Shown: positions 4,697 to 60,524 of the stretch, piece by piece
Position numbering within the stretch: the first letter of the stretch is position 1
Layout: every line of letters starts with the position of its first letter
DNA from: Candidatus Woesearchaeota archaeon
GTDB taxonomy: Archaea; Nanobdellota; Nanobdellia; Woesearchaeales; SKIA01
DNA length: 64,000 nt
Direction of reading: 5' to 3'
Assembly (NCBI GenBank): GCA_047602905.1
Contig: JBLKOP010000001.1
Span: forward strand, 26,773 to 90,772
Position numbers and translations under genes: made by a program
The notes under the pieces: generated by a model
What the model saw: the letters and a program-made list of their open reading frames with translations, nothing else
Databases searched by the model: none
What the model was told of the DNA's origin: nothing

Positions 4697-4956
4697 ATCT
4701 TTTCCTTCGATTACTTCTTGATCATTTATTTCTGGAATGATATACTTTGGTGATTTTGAGTTGGTCCCTGAAAAAAGCGGTGCTTTTCCTTTTAGGATGT
4801 GTCGATCTTTTTTTCTTGGAATTGGCTCAAAGAGCGTCTATTCCTGCATCTATTGCTTTCTTTGCATGCCTAAAATTGTCAGTGAATGGCGAGGAAGCCA
4901 TCCATACGTTTCCAAAAGAAAACAACGAATCCATATAACTACCAATTAGTAGTTAT

Positions 4957-5592
4957 TTAAAAGTTTTTATGTTTTTTCTCAACACAAGAAACAATATACT
5001 CCTCGTGAATAACCTGAACAGGAAGAGAACCATCAAGAGTAACTATACGATCACTATGCATCCTAGCAAGTTCATCATAGCCCTGCTTAACAAGAGCATG
5101 AAACGAGTCGTTTTGAGACTCCATACGATCCCTCTCTCCTTTACGAGAATTCAATCTTTGAAGGCGCTCCTCTAAACTAATACTCAAATAAAACGTTACG
5201 TCAGGAACCATATCAAAAGACTCATTCATACGCTGTATCAACCCCCAATGTGGTTGTTGCTGTTGATAACGAGCAAACCCTTGATACGCAGAAGTACTAT
5301 CATAAAAACGATCCATAACAACAGTAACTCCTTGAGCAAGGTGTGGACGAATAACTTCTTCAACCATCTGAGCACGAGAAGCATTAAACAAATACAACTC
5401 AGACAAAGAACTCATATCCTCTCCGTGAAGCAACAACGAACGAATCTGCTCCCCCAAATTAGTACCTCCAGGCTCTCTACGAACAATATGATCTATGCCT
5501 TGCTTAGAAAAATACTCTTTTAGCAACTCAATTTGTGTGCTCTTACCACAACCATCAAGGCCTTCAAACGTAATTAACGGAGCAGACCTCAT
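4957..5592 (-). CDS. tmk: thymidylate kinase
   Basis: P-loop ITFEGLDGCGKST, REPGGT, DRFYDSTSAYQG. Confidence 0.85.
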   Translation of the reverse strand: MRSAPLITFEGLDGCGKSTQIELLKEYFSKQGIDHIVRREPGGTNLGEQIRSLLLHGEDMSSLSELYLFNASRAQMVEEVIRPHLAQGVTVVMDRFYDSTSAYQGFARYQQQQPHWGLIQRMNESFDMVPDVTFYLSISLEERLQRLNSRKGERDRMESQNDSFHALVKQGYDELARMHSDRIVTLDGSLPVQVIHEEYIVSCVEKKHKNF

Positions 5593-18171: not shown

Positions 18172-18293
18172 TGAGCCCAGAGGGATTTGAACCCTCAACC
18201 ACTGGTACACTCAGAGACCTAAGTGCTAACACTAAGGAAATTCCTTATTGCCTCATATAAGACCAGCGCTCTACCAGGTTGAGCTATGGGCTC
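18172..18293 (-). tRNA. tRNA-Ile (anticodon TAT) with a 48-nt intron at the canonical 37/38 position
   Basis: Acceptor GAGCCCA/TGGGCTC, D-stem GCTC/GAGC, anticodon stem CTGGT/ACCAG, loop CTTATA then intron TGAGGCAATAAGGAATTTCCTTAGTGTTAGCACTTAGGTCTCTGAGTG, T-arm GAGGG-TTCAAAT-CCCTC. Confidence 0.7.
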
Positions 18294-30984: not shown

Positions 30985-32458
<1,474 letters not shown>

Positions 32459-32564
32459 TCTTTTTTTTTCAACAAAGAAAATCAAGAAAACGATGAACAA
32501 GTTCATCAAACAAAAACACGTTGCGTGTCACTCAAACCCTTTCCCATTCACCAACCACACGATC

Positions 32565-32637
32565 GGGCTCTTAGCTCAGTTGGTAGAGCGCCCGCTTTGC
32601 AAGCGGGAGGCCACGGGTTCGACTCCCGTAGAGTCCA
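32565..32637 (+). tRNA. tRNA-Ala (anticodon TGC) in the 16S-23S spacer
   Basis: GGGCTCT acceptor with G3:U70, anticodon loop CTTTGCAAG. Confidence 0.85.
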
Positions 32638-32877
32638 TTTACGCCACGCGCGTCAAAAAAGACCGTGTGGTATAATGAAAAACCGATCACGACGTAACAA
32701 TCGTGATCTCAGACAGAGATGCAAGTTCACTGCAGATTGTACCTACAATCAACGTACCAAGCAGTGTTCTTCACAACGAATTGCATTCATGACGTCACGC
32801 ATACACAAACCACAATATCCTGGAAATAACACCAAATTTTAGTAACGCAAGTTACTAAAAGACGCTAAACACTACAC

Positions 32878-35765
32878 TAGGTGTTTAGCGGATTGGAGGA
32901 ATGTTTCTTGGTGGATAGCTTGGCTTATCAAATGCGATGAAGGACGTGGCAAGCTGCGAAAAGGTTGGGCGAGGCGCAAGCAGCCTACGAACCCAACATA
33001 TCCGAATGCGACATCGCCAAAGAATACCGACAGGTAAGCAAACGCGGGGAATTGAAACGTCTTAGTACCCGCAGGAAAAGAAATCAACAGAGATACCCTT
33101 ATTAGCAGCGAGCGAAAAGGGCAAAGGGCAAACTGAATCCTCTGCAGAAATGCAGTTGGAAATGTAGTGTATAGGGACCTCACAACGGTACCTCTCTTTG
33201 AGATATGAAGTCCGCTGGAAAGCGGCAGCACAGAGGGTGAAACTCCCGTAATAGAATCAAAGAAGGACCAGAGGAATCCCGGAGTAAGGCGTCTTGGTTT
33301 TGGCGTCTGAAGATAGGAGTCATCAACTTCTAACCCTAAATAATCGATAAGTCCGATAGAGAACAAGTACCGTGAGGGAAAGCTGAAAAGAACCCGTGAC
33401 AGGGAATGAAAAGACCTTGAAACCAAGAAATTATAGTGAAGTACGCAACTAACGAGGTTGTGTACTGTTCGTTTTGAATAACGAGCCCGGGAGTGCGTCT
33501 CTGTGGCGAGGAAAACTCGACACGAGTGATCCGAAGCGAAAGCGACAGCTTGCAGCTTGCAAGAAGCGAGGTATGAAAGTGCCTGGAGTCACAGGGATTC
33601 GACCCGAAACCGGTCGAACTAGGCGTGGGTAGGGTGAAGCGTCGGTAAAACGACGTGGAGGCCCGAAGAGGTGCTGTGAACAAGCGTTCTCCTAACCTGC
33701 GTCTAGGGGTGAAAAGCCAATCGAGACCGGTGATAGCTGGTTCCTACCAAAGTTGACCGTAGTCAAGCCTTGAGCGAGACCGTATTCGCGGTAGAGATAC
33801 GGATTGGGGATGCAGGGGAAGAAATTCCTCGGTTCCTTGTCCAACTCCGAATGCGAATACATCGTAGACCTCAGGAGACGGTGGCACGGGGTAAGCCTGT
33901 GTCACGAGAGGGAAACAACCCAGATGAATGTTAAGGTCCCAAAGTACTGTTTAAGTGTTAACGGGTGAAGATTGTTGGTGTCCATAGACAGCGAGGAGGT
34001 TGGCTTAGAAGCAGCCACCCTATAATAAGTGCGTAACAGCTTACTTGTCAAGGGCGCCAGTATCGAAAATGGACGGGGCTAAATCAGTCACCGATACATT
34101 CAGCAGAAATGCGGTAGGTAGGCGTAGTGGTCGGGTAGAAGCGTGTTCGTGAGATCACGTGGACTAGCCACTAACGAAAATCCGGGTAATAGTAGGATCT
34201 GAGCATAGTGAGAATCTATGTCACCGAAAGGGCAAGGGTTCCTTGACACTGTACATCAGTTAAGGGTTAGTCGATCCTAATTCCCATCCTAACTGGATGA
34301 GAGAAAGAAAGGGAAACAGGTTAATATTCCTGTACCAAAGTACTAGACGGCGACGTGAAGTCGTATAGCCGACGCTTTGGGCTAAGAAAACACAGTCAAA
34401 TGTGTTAAGCAAGACATGTCTTTGGAGTGCTGTCATGGCGAGAAAAAGACAAAATTGTGATGAGTGCTTCGTATGAAGCATTTTTCTGATGCCTAGAGCC
34501 CATGAAAAGGAAATACGAAGCGACGTACTTTGATCGTACCCAGAACCGGCACAGGTGCCCCTAGGTTAGAAGCCTCAGGTGTGAAAGGATACTGTAGTTA
34601 AGGGAATTCGGCAAATTAGCCACGTGCCTTCGGCATAAGTGGTCCCTGCGCTTGTAGCAATGCGAGTGCAGGGTGCAATAACAAAGGAGTTCCGACTGTT
34701 TAACAAAAACTTAACTGGCTGCTAACCCGCAAGGGCTTGTATAGCCGGTGACGTCTGCCCAGTGCCAATACCTAAAAGTCCCGTTCAAGGGGCCTAAGGG
34801 CTGGTAAACGGCGGGGGTAACTATAACTCTCTTAAGGTAGCGAAATGCCTTGCCGTTTAATTGACGGCCTGCATGAATGGCGTAACGAGATCTCCACTGT
34901 CCCTAACTACACCCTTCCGAAAATTCCTCCTGGTGCAAAGGCCAGGGACTTCCAGTGGGAAGTGAAGACCCCGTGAAACTTTACTGTAACCTGTTGCTGT
35001 GATGTGGCTTTTGACGTGAAGGCTAGGTAGTAGCAATCGAAGGGCGCGCGCTAGCGCGTCTGGATGCGAAAGATGGGACACTACCCTTCAACAACTGCAT
35101 TACTTACCTCCAAAGAGAGGGACACCAGCAGGCGGACAGTTTGGCTGGGATGGCACACCGTCGAAAATGTATCGATGGTGCCCAAAGGTTGGCTCAGACG
35201 GGTCAGAAATCCGTCGTAGAGTGCAAGAGCAAAAGCCAGCCTAACTGGGATCTCAACATGACAGATCTCAGTACAGAAATGTAGGTCTAGCGAACCCCTG
35301 TAGCTCCTTGATGGGGCTCAGGTATGACCGAAAAGTTACTCCGGGGATAACAGAGTTGTCCCGCCCGAGAGCTCGTATCGACGGCGGGGCTTGCTACATC
35401 GATGTCGGCTCTTCCTATCCTGGCCGTGCAGAAGCGGCCAAGGGTGAGGGTGTTCACCTATTAAAAGGGATCGTGAGCTGGGTTCAGAACGCTGTGAGGC
35501 AGTTTGTTTATTATCTACTGGAAGTGTGGACTATCTGAGAGGAAGGATCGTTTAGTACGAGAGGAACGATGGTTCGTCGCCACTGGTCTATCGGTTGTCT
35601 TACAAGGCAGGCCGAGCAGCTACGCGATATCTGATAAGCGCTGAAAGCATCTAAGTGCGAAGCAGTCCTCGAAAAGAGATAGCACAACTCCGCGCAGAAC
35701 ACGCGGTTGATGGGACTGGGATGTACGCACCAAGCTTTTGCGAGGTGTTTAGTCCGCGGTTTCCA
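32878..35765 (+). rRNA. 23S rRNA (about 2.9 kb; ends approximate)
   Basis: GATGAAGGACGTGGCAAGCTGCGAAAAG near 5' end; sarcin-ricin loop region GTACGAGAGGAAC present; GC-rich relative to flanks. Confidence 0.85.
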
Positions 35766-35913
35766 ACAGGTTGGTTACCAATCTTTTGGTTTTAGTTCCT
35801 TTTGGATATTGTGGTTTGTGTATGCGTGACTTCATTTTTTTTCTTATTTTTTTGTTGTTTCTTCGGTTTTTTCTTCGTTACTTTTGTAAAGGCGTGTTTC
35901 TTTTTTTCTTGTT

Positions 35914-57587: not shown

Positions 57588-57705
57588 GCGGATGTAGCTC
57601 AGCCTGGTTAGAGCACTACGCTCATATTGATGAGCACTGAGATCAAGTTATTGATTGATGACAGGAGATACGTAGGGGTCCGGAGTTCAAATCTCCGCAT
57701 CCGCA
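57588..57705 (+). tRNA. tRNA-Met (anticodon CAT, elongator or Ile2-type) with about 43-nt intron
   Basis: Acceptor GCGGATG/CATCCGC, anticodon stem CTACG/CGTAG, loop CTCATA then intron; TATA 30 bp upstream; T-run downstream. Confidence 0.7.
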
Positions 57706-57766: not shown

Positions 57767-58312
57767 ATGGAATGGTGGATAATAGTAATTATTGTTGTAG
57801 CGGTACTGTGGATTATTCTTATGTACAACGCGTTTGTGCGCGTAAGCAACCAAGTAAAAAACGCATGGGCACAAATTGATGTTCAACTCAAAAGAAGAAC
57901 AGACCTCATCCCAAACCTTATTGAAAGCGTAAAAGGGTATATGAAGCATGAAAAAACTGTTCTTGAAGAAGTAACCAAGGCACGAACAGCGCTTATGGGA
58001 GCACAAACACCAACTGAGAACGCAAAAGCAGACAACATGCTCACAGGAGCACTCAAAAGCTTGTTTGCAGTCAGCGAGAACTACCCAGACCTAAAAGCAA
58101 ACACGAACTTCATACAACTCCAAGAAGAGCTTGTAAGCACGGAGAACAAAGTAGCGTATAGCAGACAACACTACAACGACATGGTAATGAAGTACAACAC
58201 AAAACTACAAAGCTTTCCAAACAACCTCTTTAGCGGAGTCTTTGGTTTTAGCAAGGCGGACAGTTTTGAAGCAGAAGCAACAGACAGAAAACCCGTCAAG
58301 GTAAGTTTCTAA
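57767..58312 (+). CDS. LemA-family protein
   Basis: N-terminal TM plus LemA conserved region ([20 protein letters not shown]...). Confidence 0.7.
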
Positions 58313-58316
58313 ACCG

Positions 58317-59213
58317 ATGGGAAAGCTCGTAAGCTTTGATGAAGTACGAAACAACAACCTACGAAGCACACTACTCATAGCATTCTTCTTAGTCTTCATG
58401 ACAGCACTAGGAGCAGCGATAGGATGGGTGTGGGATAACTACGTGTTCGGAGCAATCATCACGCTTATAGCAGCAAGTATGTACGCGCTCATAGCATACT
58501 TTCAAGGAAGAAACATGGTTAAGCGAATGACTGGTGCACGAGAACTCACAAAACGAGAGTTTCCACACGCATACAACGCAATAGAAGACCTTAGCCTAGC
58601 AGCAGGCATACCAACACCAGACAGATACGTTATCGACACACCAGCACTCAACGCGTTTGCAACAGGAAGAAACCCAGAGAACGCAGCAGTAGTACTCACA
58701 ACAGGACTCATAAAACACCTGAACAGAGAGGAGCTAGAAGGAGTAATAGCACACGAACTTGCACACATAAAAAACTACGATATACGAGTAATGATGATAG
58801 GAGCAGTAATAACAGGAATAATCCTTTTCTTAAGCCAATTTCTTCTCAGAAGCTTCTTCTTTAGCGGCAGTAGACGAAACGACGGAAAAGCAGGAGTTAT
58901 TATGCTTGTTATCGCAATAGTACTAGCAATTCTTAGCCCAATAATTAGTGAAATGATAAAACTCGCTATTAGCCGCAAAAGAGAGTACGCAGCAGACGCA
59001 GGAGCAGCAACGATAACCAGATACCCGCAAGGACTAGCAAACGCTTTACGAAAGATATCAAACGATCCACGACCAGAAGAAAAAATAGCGAACAGCGCGC
59101 TTAATCACATGTACATAAGTAACCCAGACAGAAAAAAAACAGGATTTTGGAGCAAAGCATTTAGTACCCACCCCCCAACAGAAGAACGAATTATGCGCTT
59201 AGAGCGGATGTGA
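58317..59213 (+). CDS. HtpX-like M48 zinc metalloprotease
   Basis: HELAH (HExxH) between TM segments. Confidence 0.75.
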   Translation: MGKLVSFDEVRNNNLRSTLLIAFFLVFMTALGAAIGWVWDNYVFGAIITLIAASMYALIAYFQGRNMVKRMTGARELTKREFPHAYNAIEDLSLAAGIPTPDRYVIDTPALNAFATGRNPENAAVVLTTGLIKHLNREELEGVIAHELAHIKNYDIRVMMIGAVITGIILFLSQFLLRSFFFSGSRRNDGKAGVIMLVIAIVLAILSPIISEMIKLAISRKREYAADAGAATITRYPQGLANALRKISNDPRPEEKIANSALNHMYISNPDRKKTGFWSKAFSTHPPTEERIMRLERM

Positions 59214-59247: not shown

Positions 59248-59628
59248 ATGAGCGAGTCACTACGAGAACTAGCAAGAGACTTCTTAGCACTAGGAAGCTG
59301 GATATTTTACGCACTCGTAGTCGTACGAGCACTTATCGAGCCGTACTGGGAGTTTGCAACGCCAGTACTCATAACAGGAGCACTCCTACTCATAACACAA
59401 AACCTCTACGCATACGAAGGATACACCGCACGAGCAACCGCTCTAGTCTACTACACAACGCAGTTCTACCAAGACACGCTCTTTAGCATCTTCGCGTACG
59501 CACTACTACTAGGAGTGCCACTAGCTGCGTACGTAAATGAGAGCACAAAAAAAGAGTTAGCACTAGCAATACTTACAACAATACCATGCATAGCAGTAGG
59601 AGTGCTGATAAGTACGTTATGGATATAA
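59248..59628 (+). CDS. membrane protein
   Basis: 4 TM helices. Confidence 0.35.
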   Translation: MSESLRELARDFLALGSWIFYALVVVRALIEPYWEFATPVLITGALLLITQNLYAYEGYTARATALVYYTTQFYQDTLFSIFAYALLLGVPLAAYVNESTKKELALAILTTIPCIAVGVLISTLWI

Positions 59629-59658
59629 GAAAGAAAAAAATATTTTGTTTACTGCACT

Positions 59659-60138
59659 TTATCCGCAAATAATCGCTTCTATAACGTCAGCTTCATCAAG
59701 ATACACGTTTAGACGATCAACTCGGTAATCCATAGTGACAGCGTCACCAGGACGAATAACTCTGTACGAGTCACTATAGCCAGCAACATCCATCTCCTCA
59801 ATAGACAAACCAAGATAGTCTTGAAGCTGTGAAGCGCCACAAGCATCCTCATCAAAAACAGGCACGTCGTCTTGCTCATTACAAGCACCAGGCGTGTGGT
59901 ACGTTACGTTCTCATTGCTACAAGCAACACAAGAGTTACTATATGTCACGTTGTAATCACCACAAACAGGCATGTACTCGCGAGTACACACTTCAGGGCG
60001 GTTATCCACGTCACACAAAGTAGCCTCGCTAGGCACTTCGCTGACAGGATCAAGGGTTTGGGAATCATCCACAGCAACGCAACCAGCAAAGAGCAGGAGC
60101 GCTGCGAAGACGAACAATACGTTTTTCATACACAACAC
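59659..60138 (-). CDS. secreted lipoprotein with a Kazal-type domain and an I78-family protease-inhibitor domain
   Basis: Lipobox LLFAGC; Kazal Cys spacing C..C..PVCG.DY..TY.N.C.AC; C-terminal SYRVIRPGDAVTMDYRVDRLNVYLDEADVIEAIICG matches the I78 signature. Confidence 0.6.
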   Translation of the reverse strand: MLCMKNVLFVFAALLLFAGCVAVDDSQTLDPVSEVPSEATLCDVDNRPEVCTREYMPVCGDYNVTYSNSCVACSNENVTYHTPGACNEQDDVPVFDEDACGASQLQDYLGLSIEEMDVAGYSDSYRVIRPGDAVTMDYRVDRLNVYLDEADVIEAIICG

Positions 60139-60188
60139 AAAGACAACAGCATTTATAAATATCGAAGATAGTTACCACAACCATAGAA

Positions 60189-60524
60189 ATGACCTCTACA
60201 GAACCAACAGAGAACACGAGCAAACAACGGCTCAGAGTAGCAACAGGACTACTCATAGCTCCTTTAATGACAGCAGCCTACAAACTAGGAAAAAAACAGC
60301 CGTGGAGCGCACTAGAAACAACAGCAGCAGGAGTAGGGCTTGTTCTGTACCAGTGGAGATGGGCAGTTCCGCTCTACATAGCAACAGCACTTACACCCTC
60401 TGCTCAATCAAACACACCAACTCCCCTCTCGCAACTAGAAGAAATAGTAATTGAGCAATGCATAGACGCAACACAAAAAGATACCTCCTACGCGCAGCAA
60501 CCAATAGACTTCTTGTACGAATAA
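60189..60524 (+). CDS. small membrane protein
   Basis: 2 TM helices. Confidence 0.3.
   Translation: MTSTEPTENTSKQRLRVATGLLIAPLMTAAYKLGKKQPWSALETTAAGVGLVLYQWRWAVPLYIATALTPSAQSNTPTPLSQLEEIVIEQCIDATQKDTSYAQQPIDFLYE

Follow-up and report, generated by a model that had tools for sequence, protein, structure and literature searches.

A small gene on the minus strand of a 64,000-nucleotide (nt) stretch of the Candidatus Woesearchaeota archaeon genome (assembly GCA_047602905.1, contig JBLKOP010000001.1, positions 26,773 to 90,772; hereafter, the window) encodes a predicted lipoprotein in which two unrelated protease inhibitor folds, a Kazal domain and an I78 domain, are joined in one chain. The protein of 156 amino acids (aa) consists of a lipobox signal peptide, a tether, one Kazal domain, a short acidic linker, and one I78 domain. 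It is probably a membrane-tethered two-headed canonical inhibitor that shields the cell surface from two classes of extracellular serine protease. Each domain is a typical representative of an established family. An identical protein is present in NCBI as 'MAG: I78 family peptidase inhibitor [Candidatus Woesearchaeota archaeon]' (MAG, metagenome-assembled genome), a name that covers half of its architecture, and it was found on 27 contigs (NCBI/Logan). What is new is the verified Kazal+I78 pairing, which is conserved under selection within a family of modular Kazal-array lipoproteins varying at one locus. No published description of this combination was found in the literature searched.

The coding sequence and the parts of its product are listed below; P1 is the residue that precedes the scissile bond, and pLDDT is the predicted local distance difference test score of the AlphaFold model.

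59659..60129, minus strand: coding sequence of the Kazal+I78 lipoprotein precursor, 156 aa and a stop codon (list of open reading frames (ORFs); identical public protein)
60082..60129, minus strand: signal peptide, aa 1-16 (MKNVLFVFAALLLFAG), with the lipobox at its end (read from the sequence)
60079..60081, minus strand: Cys17, predicted lipid-modified residue 1 of the mature protein (invariant alignment column)
60016..60078, minus strand: acidic tether, aa 18-38, 21 residues (mean pairwise identity 0.28; pLDDT 60-64)
59881..60015, minus strand: Kazal domain, aa 39-83, with Cys39, 48, 56, 67, 70, and 83 (Pfam, PROSITE, model)
59980..59982, minus strand: Arg50, predicted P1 of the Kazal domain, C48-T49-R50/E51-Y52-M53, scissile bond after R50 (alignment with OMTKY3)
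59842..59880, minus strand: acidic inter-domain linker, aa 84-96 (mean pairwise identity 0.50; pLDDT dips to about 76-83)
59662..59841, minus strand: I78 domain, aa 97-156, 60 residues, with Cys97 and Cys155 at its ends (Pfam, BLASTP, Foldseek)
59731..59733, minus strand: Met133, predicted P1 of the I78 domain, T132-M133/D134-Y135-R136, scissile bond after M133 (alignment with AFUEI and CI2)

A first-pass annotation of this DNA had described a Kazal-like cysteine pattern behind a lipobox, and the pattern proved to be that of a true Kazal domain. Pfam Kazal_1 (PF00050) is matched by aa 44-73 with 35.4 bits at a cut-off of 21 (E=1.1e-8), while Kazal_2 remains under its threshold (16.8 vs 22.8 bits). 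The PROSITE signature PS00282 (C-x7-C-x6-Y-x3-C-x2,3-C) is matched at aa 48-70, and CTREYMPVCGDYNVTYSNSCVACS is located at aa 48-71. The six cysteines are spaced as C39-x8-C48-x7-C56-x10-C67-x2-C70-x12-C83, and all of them are retained in the fusion homologues. A phmmer search against PDB sequences revealed ovomucoid as the best match (1.4e-8), followed by PSTI and many OMTKY3 variants; the C-terminal half matched AFUEI (1.1e-3) and CI2. When eight orthologues were combined into a profile, ovomucoid was matched at 1.1e-12 and AFUEI (3w0d_A) at 3.8e-7.

In the phmmer alignment, aa 46-71 (EVCTREYMPVCGDYNVTYSNSCVACS) are paired with chain 2nu2_I, an engineered form of OMTKY3 that has Arg18 at P1 and likewise carries the loop CTREY. 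Residues C16, Thr17, X18, Glu19, Tyr20, and Asn33 of OMTKY3 correspond to C48, T49, R50, E51, Y52, and N65. This places the P1 at Arg50 and predicts trypsin-like proteases as the targets of the Kazal head. The six-cysteine pattern, the PROSITE signature, the canonical loop C-T-P1-E-Y, and the supporting Asn are common to OMTKY3/PSTI (MEROPS I1) and the protein studied here, which differs in being archaeal, carrying a predicted lipobox anchor, and being fused to an unrelated inhibitor fold. In addition, its segment between the fifth and sixth cysteines (12 residues) is shorter than that of OMTKY3 (about 17 residues). Two N-X-T sequons can be noted in the Kazal domain, N60-V-T (nt ~59950-59952) and N74-V-T (~59908-59910); N60 aligns with the position of the NKT sequon in the ovomucoid third domain, and archaeal N-glycosylation of these sites is possible.

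The C-terminal segment had been assigned to the I78 peptidase inhibitors by its signature, and this assignment holds over the full length of the family model: Inhibitor_I78 (PF11720) is matched by aa 97-156 on profile positions 1-65 of 65, with 49.8 bits at a cut-off of 23.6 (E=3.6e-13). The agreement with the two families is much better than chance would produce. Both the AFUEI motif and the cysteine pair are present, and RVIRPGDAVTMDYRVDRLNVYLDEADVIEAIICG is located at aa 123-156. BLASTP of the C-terminal domain against AFUEI, the sequence of which was taken from PMC8954713 for all comparisons, gave 2e-10 with 39% identity over 38 aa; C97 and C155 line up with C5 and C67 of AFUEI. When the I78 domain is aligned with AFUEI and CI2, all three have the Thr-Met pair, Met133 coincides with Met59 (P1) of CI2, and Arg139 coincides with the loop-supporting Arg65 of CI2. 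The P1 numbering of CI2 follows the titles of PDB structures of CI2-subtilisin complexes with mutated Met59. The P1 of the I78 head is thus predicted to be Met133, and subtilisin, chymotrypsin, or elastase-like enzymes are its predicted targets. AFUEI is an elastase inhibitor, which agrees with this prediction (PMC8954713).

The motif PGD-x-(I/V)-TM-(D/E)-Y...RLN, the terminal cysteine pair, the full Pfam model, and the fold are shared with AFUEI (MEROPS I78.001, PDB 3w0d). However, the fungal AFUEI consists of this one domain and is secreted in free form, whereas in the archaeal protein the domain forms the C-terminal head of a two-domain chain that is predicted to be tethered to the membrane. 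CI2 and eglin c (potato inhibitor I, MEROPS I13) have the same fold and the loop motif V-T-M-E/D-Y-R-x-D-R in common with it. Unlike CI2, the protein has the terminal cysteine pair, and its match to Pfam potato_inhibit (PF00280), 15.4 bits, is under the cut-off of 24.5. Thus, the C-terminal domain has the I13 fold but belongs to I78.

Structure prediction resolved both heads. In the first AlphaFold model, based on 19 sequences, the I78 half was resolved and the Kazal half was poor (pLDDT 48-74), and Foldseek found only the I78/CI2 half. The second model was built with 67 alignment rows, including 47 added Kazal segments from related proteins; its mean pLDDT is 85.8, with 92-97 in the Kazal part (aa 31-80) and 82-97 in the I78 domain. 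In the Foldseek search against PDB, AFUEI (3w0d_A) was matched by both models with a template modelling (TM) score of 0.79-0.80 and, across 65-68 columns, a root-mean-square deviation of 1.8-2.3 A; the structures of CI2 and eglin c, which include many complexes with subtilisin, gave TM scores of 0.52-0.61. Ovomucoid third domains were matched with TM scores of 0.62-0.66 and 36-38% identity (0.62 for 2ovo and 0.63-0.66 for the OMTKY3 variants, probability 1.00). The first-pass annotation had named a Pfam search and a structure prediction as checks; the former matched both families, and the latter gave an ovomucoid-like and an AFUEI-like fold. It would have given up its assignment if neither family had been matched and the cysteines had varied in homologues; instead, both families are matched and all six Kazal cysteines are conserved.

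The combination recurs in related archaea. Seven more Kazal+I78 proteins with 52-71% identity were found, and two family members (P0003 and P0185) have two Kazal heads followed by I78. A tenth fusion protein, encoded by locus L009, has a degenerate I78 domain with 22.4 bits, just under the Pfam cut-off. All ten fusions either have archaeal neighbours or are closely related to ones that have. In an exhaustive profile search of 1.84 billion cluster representatives, three full-length architectures were among the best 150 matches listed, and multi-Kazal proteins dominated the others; therefore, the fusion is rare. No Kazal+I78 pairing outside the archaeal clade was found in the profile search of cluster representatives or in the species-level genome collection. 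When only the 59-aa Kazal segment served as the query, a word-index search for homologues gave no matches, probably because this query was too short.

The most conserved parts of the fusions are their reactive loops. All eight aligned proteins have CTREY-x-PVCG and RPGDAVT(M/L)DYR-x-x-RLN without variation; their mean pairwise identity is 0.90-0.91 in the reactive loops, compared with 0.63-0.64 over the entire domains and 0.28 along the tether. The ratio of nonsynonymous to synonymous substitution rates (dN/dS), crudely estimated by the Nei-Gojobori method with synonymous sites close to saturation, comes to 0.03-0.23 in the Kazal domain and 0.09-0.31 in the I78 domain. Low dN/dS together with the conserved loops indicates, at the level of sequence comparison, that both heads are maintained by purifying selection.

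The lipobox LLFAGC reported by the first-pass annotation occupies aa 12-17, behind Lys2 and a 12-residue hydrophobic core that ends in F-A-G before C17. Cys17 is conserved in all 19 of the aligned homologues, including bacterial I78 lipoproteins, and every fusion homologue has [LFI][AGV][GA]C at this place. In comparison with the consensus [L/V/I]-[A/S/T/V/I]-[G/A/S]-C, positions -2, -1, and +1 of L-F-A-G-C17 agree, and position -3 is occupied by Phe (L, F, or I in orthologues). Lipobox proteins are predicted to be prevalent in DPANN archaea, and the lipidation enzyme AliA (arCOG02177) is present there 'with some gaps' according to a 2025 study (PMC12462473). Lipid anchoring of the inhibitor via Cys17 is likely.

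The mature form would be 140 aa long (~15 kDa) with an isoelectric point (pI) of 4.05; it contains no Lys and six Arg, one of which is the predicted P1. Halophily as the cause of this acidity was rejected: the median pI of the window proteome is 6.15, without an acid shift. The acidity is therefore specific to the inhibitor protein. Lys and Arg are the cleavage sites of trypsin, and it is a speculation that a low number of these residues would suit survival among trypsin-like enzymes.

The proposed function is as follows. The precursor would be exported through Sec, cleaved before Cys17, and anchored by lipid on the outside of the archaeal membrane. There, a flexible tether, about 20 residues long, would display two independent Laskowski-type heads, that is, substrate-like, tight-binding inhibitors of serine proteases. 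The Kazal head, with the loop C-T-R/E-Y-M, would take trypsin-like (S1, Arg-specific) proteases, while the I78 head, with its CI2-like fold and the loop V-T-M/D-Y-R, would take subtilisin, chymotrypsin, or elastase-like ones. As one head has P1 Arg and the other P1 Met, two different specificity classes would be covered, and the two heads together would guard the surface of a small DPANN cell against both. The target proteases most likely come from other organisms, and it is reasonable to suppose that the archaeon meets foreign proteases in its host community, as was suggested earlier.

Several points weigh against this scheme. In the literature searched, assays were found only for the fungal AFUEI and none for an archaeal Kazal or a prokaryotic I78 protein, and in the one case where a bacterial I78 homologue is reported to have been tried, its expression was unsuccessful (PMC12620975). 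The residue at position -3 of the lipobox is Phe, whereas the consensus has L/V/I. A scan of the 64-kb window for the GDSGG (trypsin-type) and GTSMA (subtilisin-type) motifs revealed no serine protease and hence no local candidate for a target. Finally, the strongly conserved loops could mean one fixed, possibly endogenous target rather than diverse foreign proteases. Animal Kazal families typically have hypervariable contact residues, and in this respect the protein differs from OMTKY3 and its animal relatives.

The last point leads to the alternative that the two-headed inhibitor silences, at the cell surface, serine proteases that the archaeon itself secretes or displays. Near-invariant reactive loops in orthologues are more in line with a fixed target that is inherited together with the inhibitor than with an arms race, and a precedent can be noted in Aspergillus fumigatus, which makes both AFUEI and the elastase that is its target (PMC8954713). 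However, the motif scan, which covered the window only, found no S1 or S8 protease motif, and RPGDAVTMDY is kept in distant proteobacterial lipoproteins, so the conservation of the I78 loop is a property of the family rather than of a particular target. Silencing of the archaeon's own enzymes carries some weight but is considered unlikely.

Still less probable is that the Kazal and I78 domains are non-inhibitory binding or adhesion modules attaching the DPANN cell to a host or a substrate. DPANN archaea are commonly episymbionts, and the predicted surface tethering would fit adhesion. Kazal-like domains in follistatin, agrin, SPARC, and OATP transporters are non-inhibitory, and the search of NCBIfam, which gave no meaningful match for the inhibitor, contained a weak match to an OATP Kazal-like segment (E=0.028), a reminder that such relatives exist. 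However, the best matches in sequence and structure (OMTKY3, PSTI, CI2, and AFUEI) are genuine inhibitors known from complexes with proteases. The canonical residues are intact in the Kazal loop and in the CI2-like motif (Thr-Met-Glu/Asp-Tyr-Arg...Arg), and they belong to the most conserved part of the protein. As the canonical loop residues are conserved best, a non-inhibitory adhesion role is very unlikely, and shielding of the surface by inhibition is preferred.

The next question concerns the neighbouring genes on the plus strand, which are the following.

57767..58312, plus strand: LemA (Pfam LemA, 211 bits)
58317..59213, plus strand: M48 protease HtpX (Pfam Peptidase_M48, 120 bits)
59248..59628, plus strand: membrane protein of 126 aa

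The first-pass annotation had placed the inhibitor next to the LemA and HtpX-like pair. The pair is indeed present nearby, but the adjacency is not immediate: the 126-aa membrane-protein gene separates HtpX from the inhibitor gene, which lies on the opposite strand, convergent to the others. The product of 59248-59628 is a multi-pass membrane protein without a family match. Its gene is retained in the related loci L001-L004, L006, and L089 and absent from L009 and L011, and it may be the third member of the LemA-HtpX unit.

A partnership of the inhibitor with the LemA/HtpX (M48) membrane protease, in which it regulates HtpX or is processed by it, would explain why, wherever the sequence is available, the pair is found downstream of the inhibitor gene, as it is in the window and at seven related loci. 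However, the convergent orientation means that the inhibitor is not co-transcribed with HtpX/LemA. The enzymes inhibited by the Kazal and I78/CI2 types are serine proteases, whereas HtpX is a zinc metalloprotease, and LemA-HtpX pairs are widespread without any inhibitor. All loci with this adjacency come from close relatives that share the flanking order (GluRS, FtsZ, TFIIE, aIF2-gamma), and genes have been inserted between the inhibitor and HtpX/LemA, one of 784 aa in L010 and one of 172 aa in L005. A functional Kazal/I78-HtpX system was rejected on the grounds of strand, protease class, and inherited synteny; we regard it as highly improbable. Since all these loci are from close relatives with conserved flanking genes, the adjacency is best read as an inherited gene order around a variable surface-protein slot and not as a functional link.

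The order GluRS, inhibitor, (small membrane protein), HtpX, LemA is found in the window, L005, L006, and L089, with the inhibitor convergent to the HtpX unit. The genomes of these loci and of those listed below are close relatives, their HtpX proteins being about 80% identical by eye. In the case of P0004, the upstream neighbours differ, and on the downstream side the contig stops 231 bp past the gene. Among related Woesearchaeota genomes, the slot between GluRS and HtpX/LemA holds lipobox inhibitors of differing architectures, with the following examples.

L009, 4986-5450: Kazal and a degenerate I78, in the GluRS-HtpX/LemA slot
L089, 3588-4436: two Kazal heads and I78, in the GluRS-HtpX/LemA slot
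L011, 4989-5729: three Kazal heads and a small Cys-rich module, in the same slot
L010, 4746-5609: four Kazal heads and a small Cys-rich module; a 784-aa surface-protein gene is inserted ahead of HtpX/LemA

The P1 residue in the Kazal arrays of the slot is Arg, Leu, or Met. In three of these loci, all from MAGs, a conserved small membrane protein of about 95-122 aa is encoded directly upstream on the same strand (L010 4317-4670, L011 4552-4920, L009 4639-4926); it is not found in the window, where an unrelated divergent ORF of 111 aa takes its place.

Kazal arrays extend beyond this slot. A search with a 246-aa relative containing three Kazal domains revealed 465 proteins, including those of Woesearchaeota, Nanoarchaeota, a 'Methanopyri archaeon', Verrucomicrobiota, and animals; NCBI names among them are 'Kazal-type serine protease inhibitor domain-containing protein' and 'DUF333 domain-containing protein'. 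Kazal-array lipoproteins are thus a recurring, already annotated trait of DPANN genomes, and their partner modules are DUF333, a Cys-rich 27-mer, pacifastin-like segments, and I78. The protein studied here resembles them in lineage, lipobox signal, Kazal subtype (loops CT[RLM][ED]Y.PVCG), and, for some, the chromosomal slot. Unlike them, with their two to four Kazal heads and a DUF333 or Cys-rich module, it has I78 instead.

The Cys-rich module of about 27 aa, C-x2-DA-x2-CPDGS-x-VGR-x-GP-x-CEF-x-PCP, terminates Kazal arrays and is denoted PF27023 in precomputed annotations. It lies at ~5510-5606 in L010 and ~5640-5720 in L011, and it is present in proteins P0177, P0190, P0220, P0242, and P0249, with six repeats in P0177 and a neighbouring Kunitz domain in P0249. 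The module could itself be a unit of inhibition or binding.

A wider reading of these loci is offered as a tentative one. The GluRS-HtpX/LemA slot could be a fast-reshuffling cassette of lipid-anchored multi-headed inhibitors, in which Kazal+I78 represents one of the allele-like states. Put together from parts of bacterial origin, such an 'anti-protease shield' of DPANN cells would be needed for life on or next to hosts or neighbours that secrete proteases. If this is true, functional inhibitors of the Kazal and I78 types would be on record for Archaea for the first time, and they would serve DPANN cells in symbiosis or defence.

As for the origin of the parts, the nearest I78-only relatives in the species-level collection are proteobacterial lipoproteins with a single domain (Rhodobacterales, Maricaulis, Halomonas, and Lysobacter), with 40-52% identity. 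Their genes frequently form tandem pairs in these bacteria. In the alphaproteobacteria Maricaulis and Planktomarina, single-domain I78 lipoprotein genes are arranged in tandem (4830-5225 and 5242-5604 in L015; 4959-5255 and 5271-5588 in L036). The second copy has a changed loop, GPNTPVTMDY or PPNSAVTMDY, and such pairs are a two-gene counterpart of a multi-headed inhibitor. A MAG of Henriciella sp. (L084, 4470-5138) encodes a lipoprotein with a Kazal_1 match of 34.2 bits and the reactive loop RPEVCTREYMPVCG, identical to the archaeal one; this module is without the C-x2-C pair, its fifth cysteine being missing. The identity of the loops hints at a shared prokaryotic Kazal lineage. Taken at the sequence level, these similarities suggest an exchange between these archaea and bacteria, in one direction or the other. 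A compositional sign of recent transfer was sought in the GC content of third codon positions and none was seen, the value of 0.41 for the inhibitor gene agreeing with those of its neighbours; therefore, any transfer was not recent.

Multi-headed inhibitors with different folds are known in animals, for example, WFIKKN (WAP, Kazal-like, and Kunitz) and eppin (WAP and Kunitz). There, as in the protein described here, unrelated inhibitor folds in one chain cover several protease specificities, but those proteins are eukaryotic and secreted, and their combinations of folds are different. Ecotin (I11) and the Streptomyces subtilisin inhibitor (I16) are bacterial surface or periplasmic inhibitors used for self-protection, and the proposed shielding of the envelope against exogenous serine proteases is similar. 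Both are unrelated in fold; the breadth of ecotin comes from a dimer with Met at P1, whereas here it would come from two heads with different P1 residues.

A 2026 survey of archaeal folds considered Kazal inhibitors to be DPANN-only singletons, possibly artefacts of classification (PMC13607799). The locus described here shows that archaeal Kazal inhibitors are genuine, modular proteins subject to selection. Little work has been done on protein inhibitors of proteases in archaea, and this small protein is easy to test. It could reveal how ultra-small, dependent DPANN cells protect their exposed surface proteins, and it could yield a compact inhibitor scaffold with two specificities. The parts are textbook ones and their pairing would not surprise a specialist in protease inhibitors, so the finding is of modest significance and of some ecological interest in DPANN biology.

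The minus-strand ORF spans 59659-60138, the limits given by the first-pass annotation, and encodes 159 aa if read from a GTG; an in-frame ATG is located three codons inside, at 60129. Public gene calls and the NCBI record use this ATG, which gives 156 aa, so the ORF itself stands and the gene is better taken as 59659-60129. Two flanking signals can be proposed.

60152..60159, no strand assigned: palindromic TATA-like box TTTATAAA (read off the sequence; putative promoter role based on general knowledge of archaeal promoters)
59634..59640, minus strand: run of seven T, candidate archaeal oligo-T terminator, 18 nt past the stop codon in the convergent intergenic gap

The TTTATAAA box is located 22 nt 5' of the ATG, about 13 nt from the GTG, and 29 nt from the start of a divergent ORF at 60189. 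The ATG is favoured as the start because its spacing from the box is 22 nt, against only about 13 nt for the GTG. The divergent ORF (60189-60524, plus strand, 111 aa) has no Pfam match and has the palindromic box in common with the inhibitor gene. A scan for sigma-70 promoters and intrinsic terminators gave only chance-level matches; such models are not relevant to an archaeal host.

A slightly longer antisense ORF (59972-60454, plus strand, 160 aa) overlaps the inhibitor gene and is chosen by a naive length-greedy caller, but the idea that it is the real gene, or that the inhibitor ORF is a chance one, is refuted by two Pfam domains over their cut-offs, ten homologous fusions, purifying selection (crude dN/dS of the whole gene against orthologues, 0.13-0.30), and the same frame called by public pipelines, and it can practically be dismissed. 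The choice of the length-greedy caller illustrates how a small inhibitor gene could be mis-annotated.

The archaeal nature of the host is evident from a 16S-tRNA-23S operon and from neighbouring genes encoding TFIIE-alpha, aIF2-gamma, Spt5, FtsZ, and an archaellin-type pilin. The rRNA operon is complete (30986-35786) and consists of 16S (30986-32456), tRNA-Ala(TGC) (32565-32637), and 23S (32888-35786), which makes it useful for phylogenetic placement. In addition, two Rfam tRNA matches of 118-122 nt, at 18172-18293 (minus strand) and 57588-57705 (plus strand), were not called by ARAGORN; they are probably intron-containing archaeal tRNAs.

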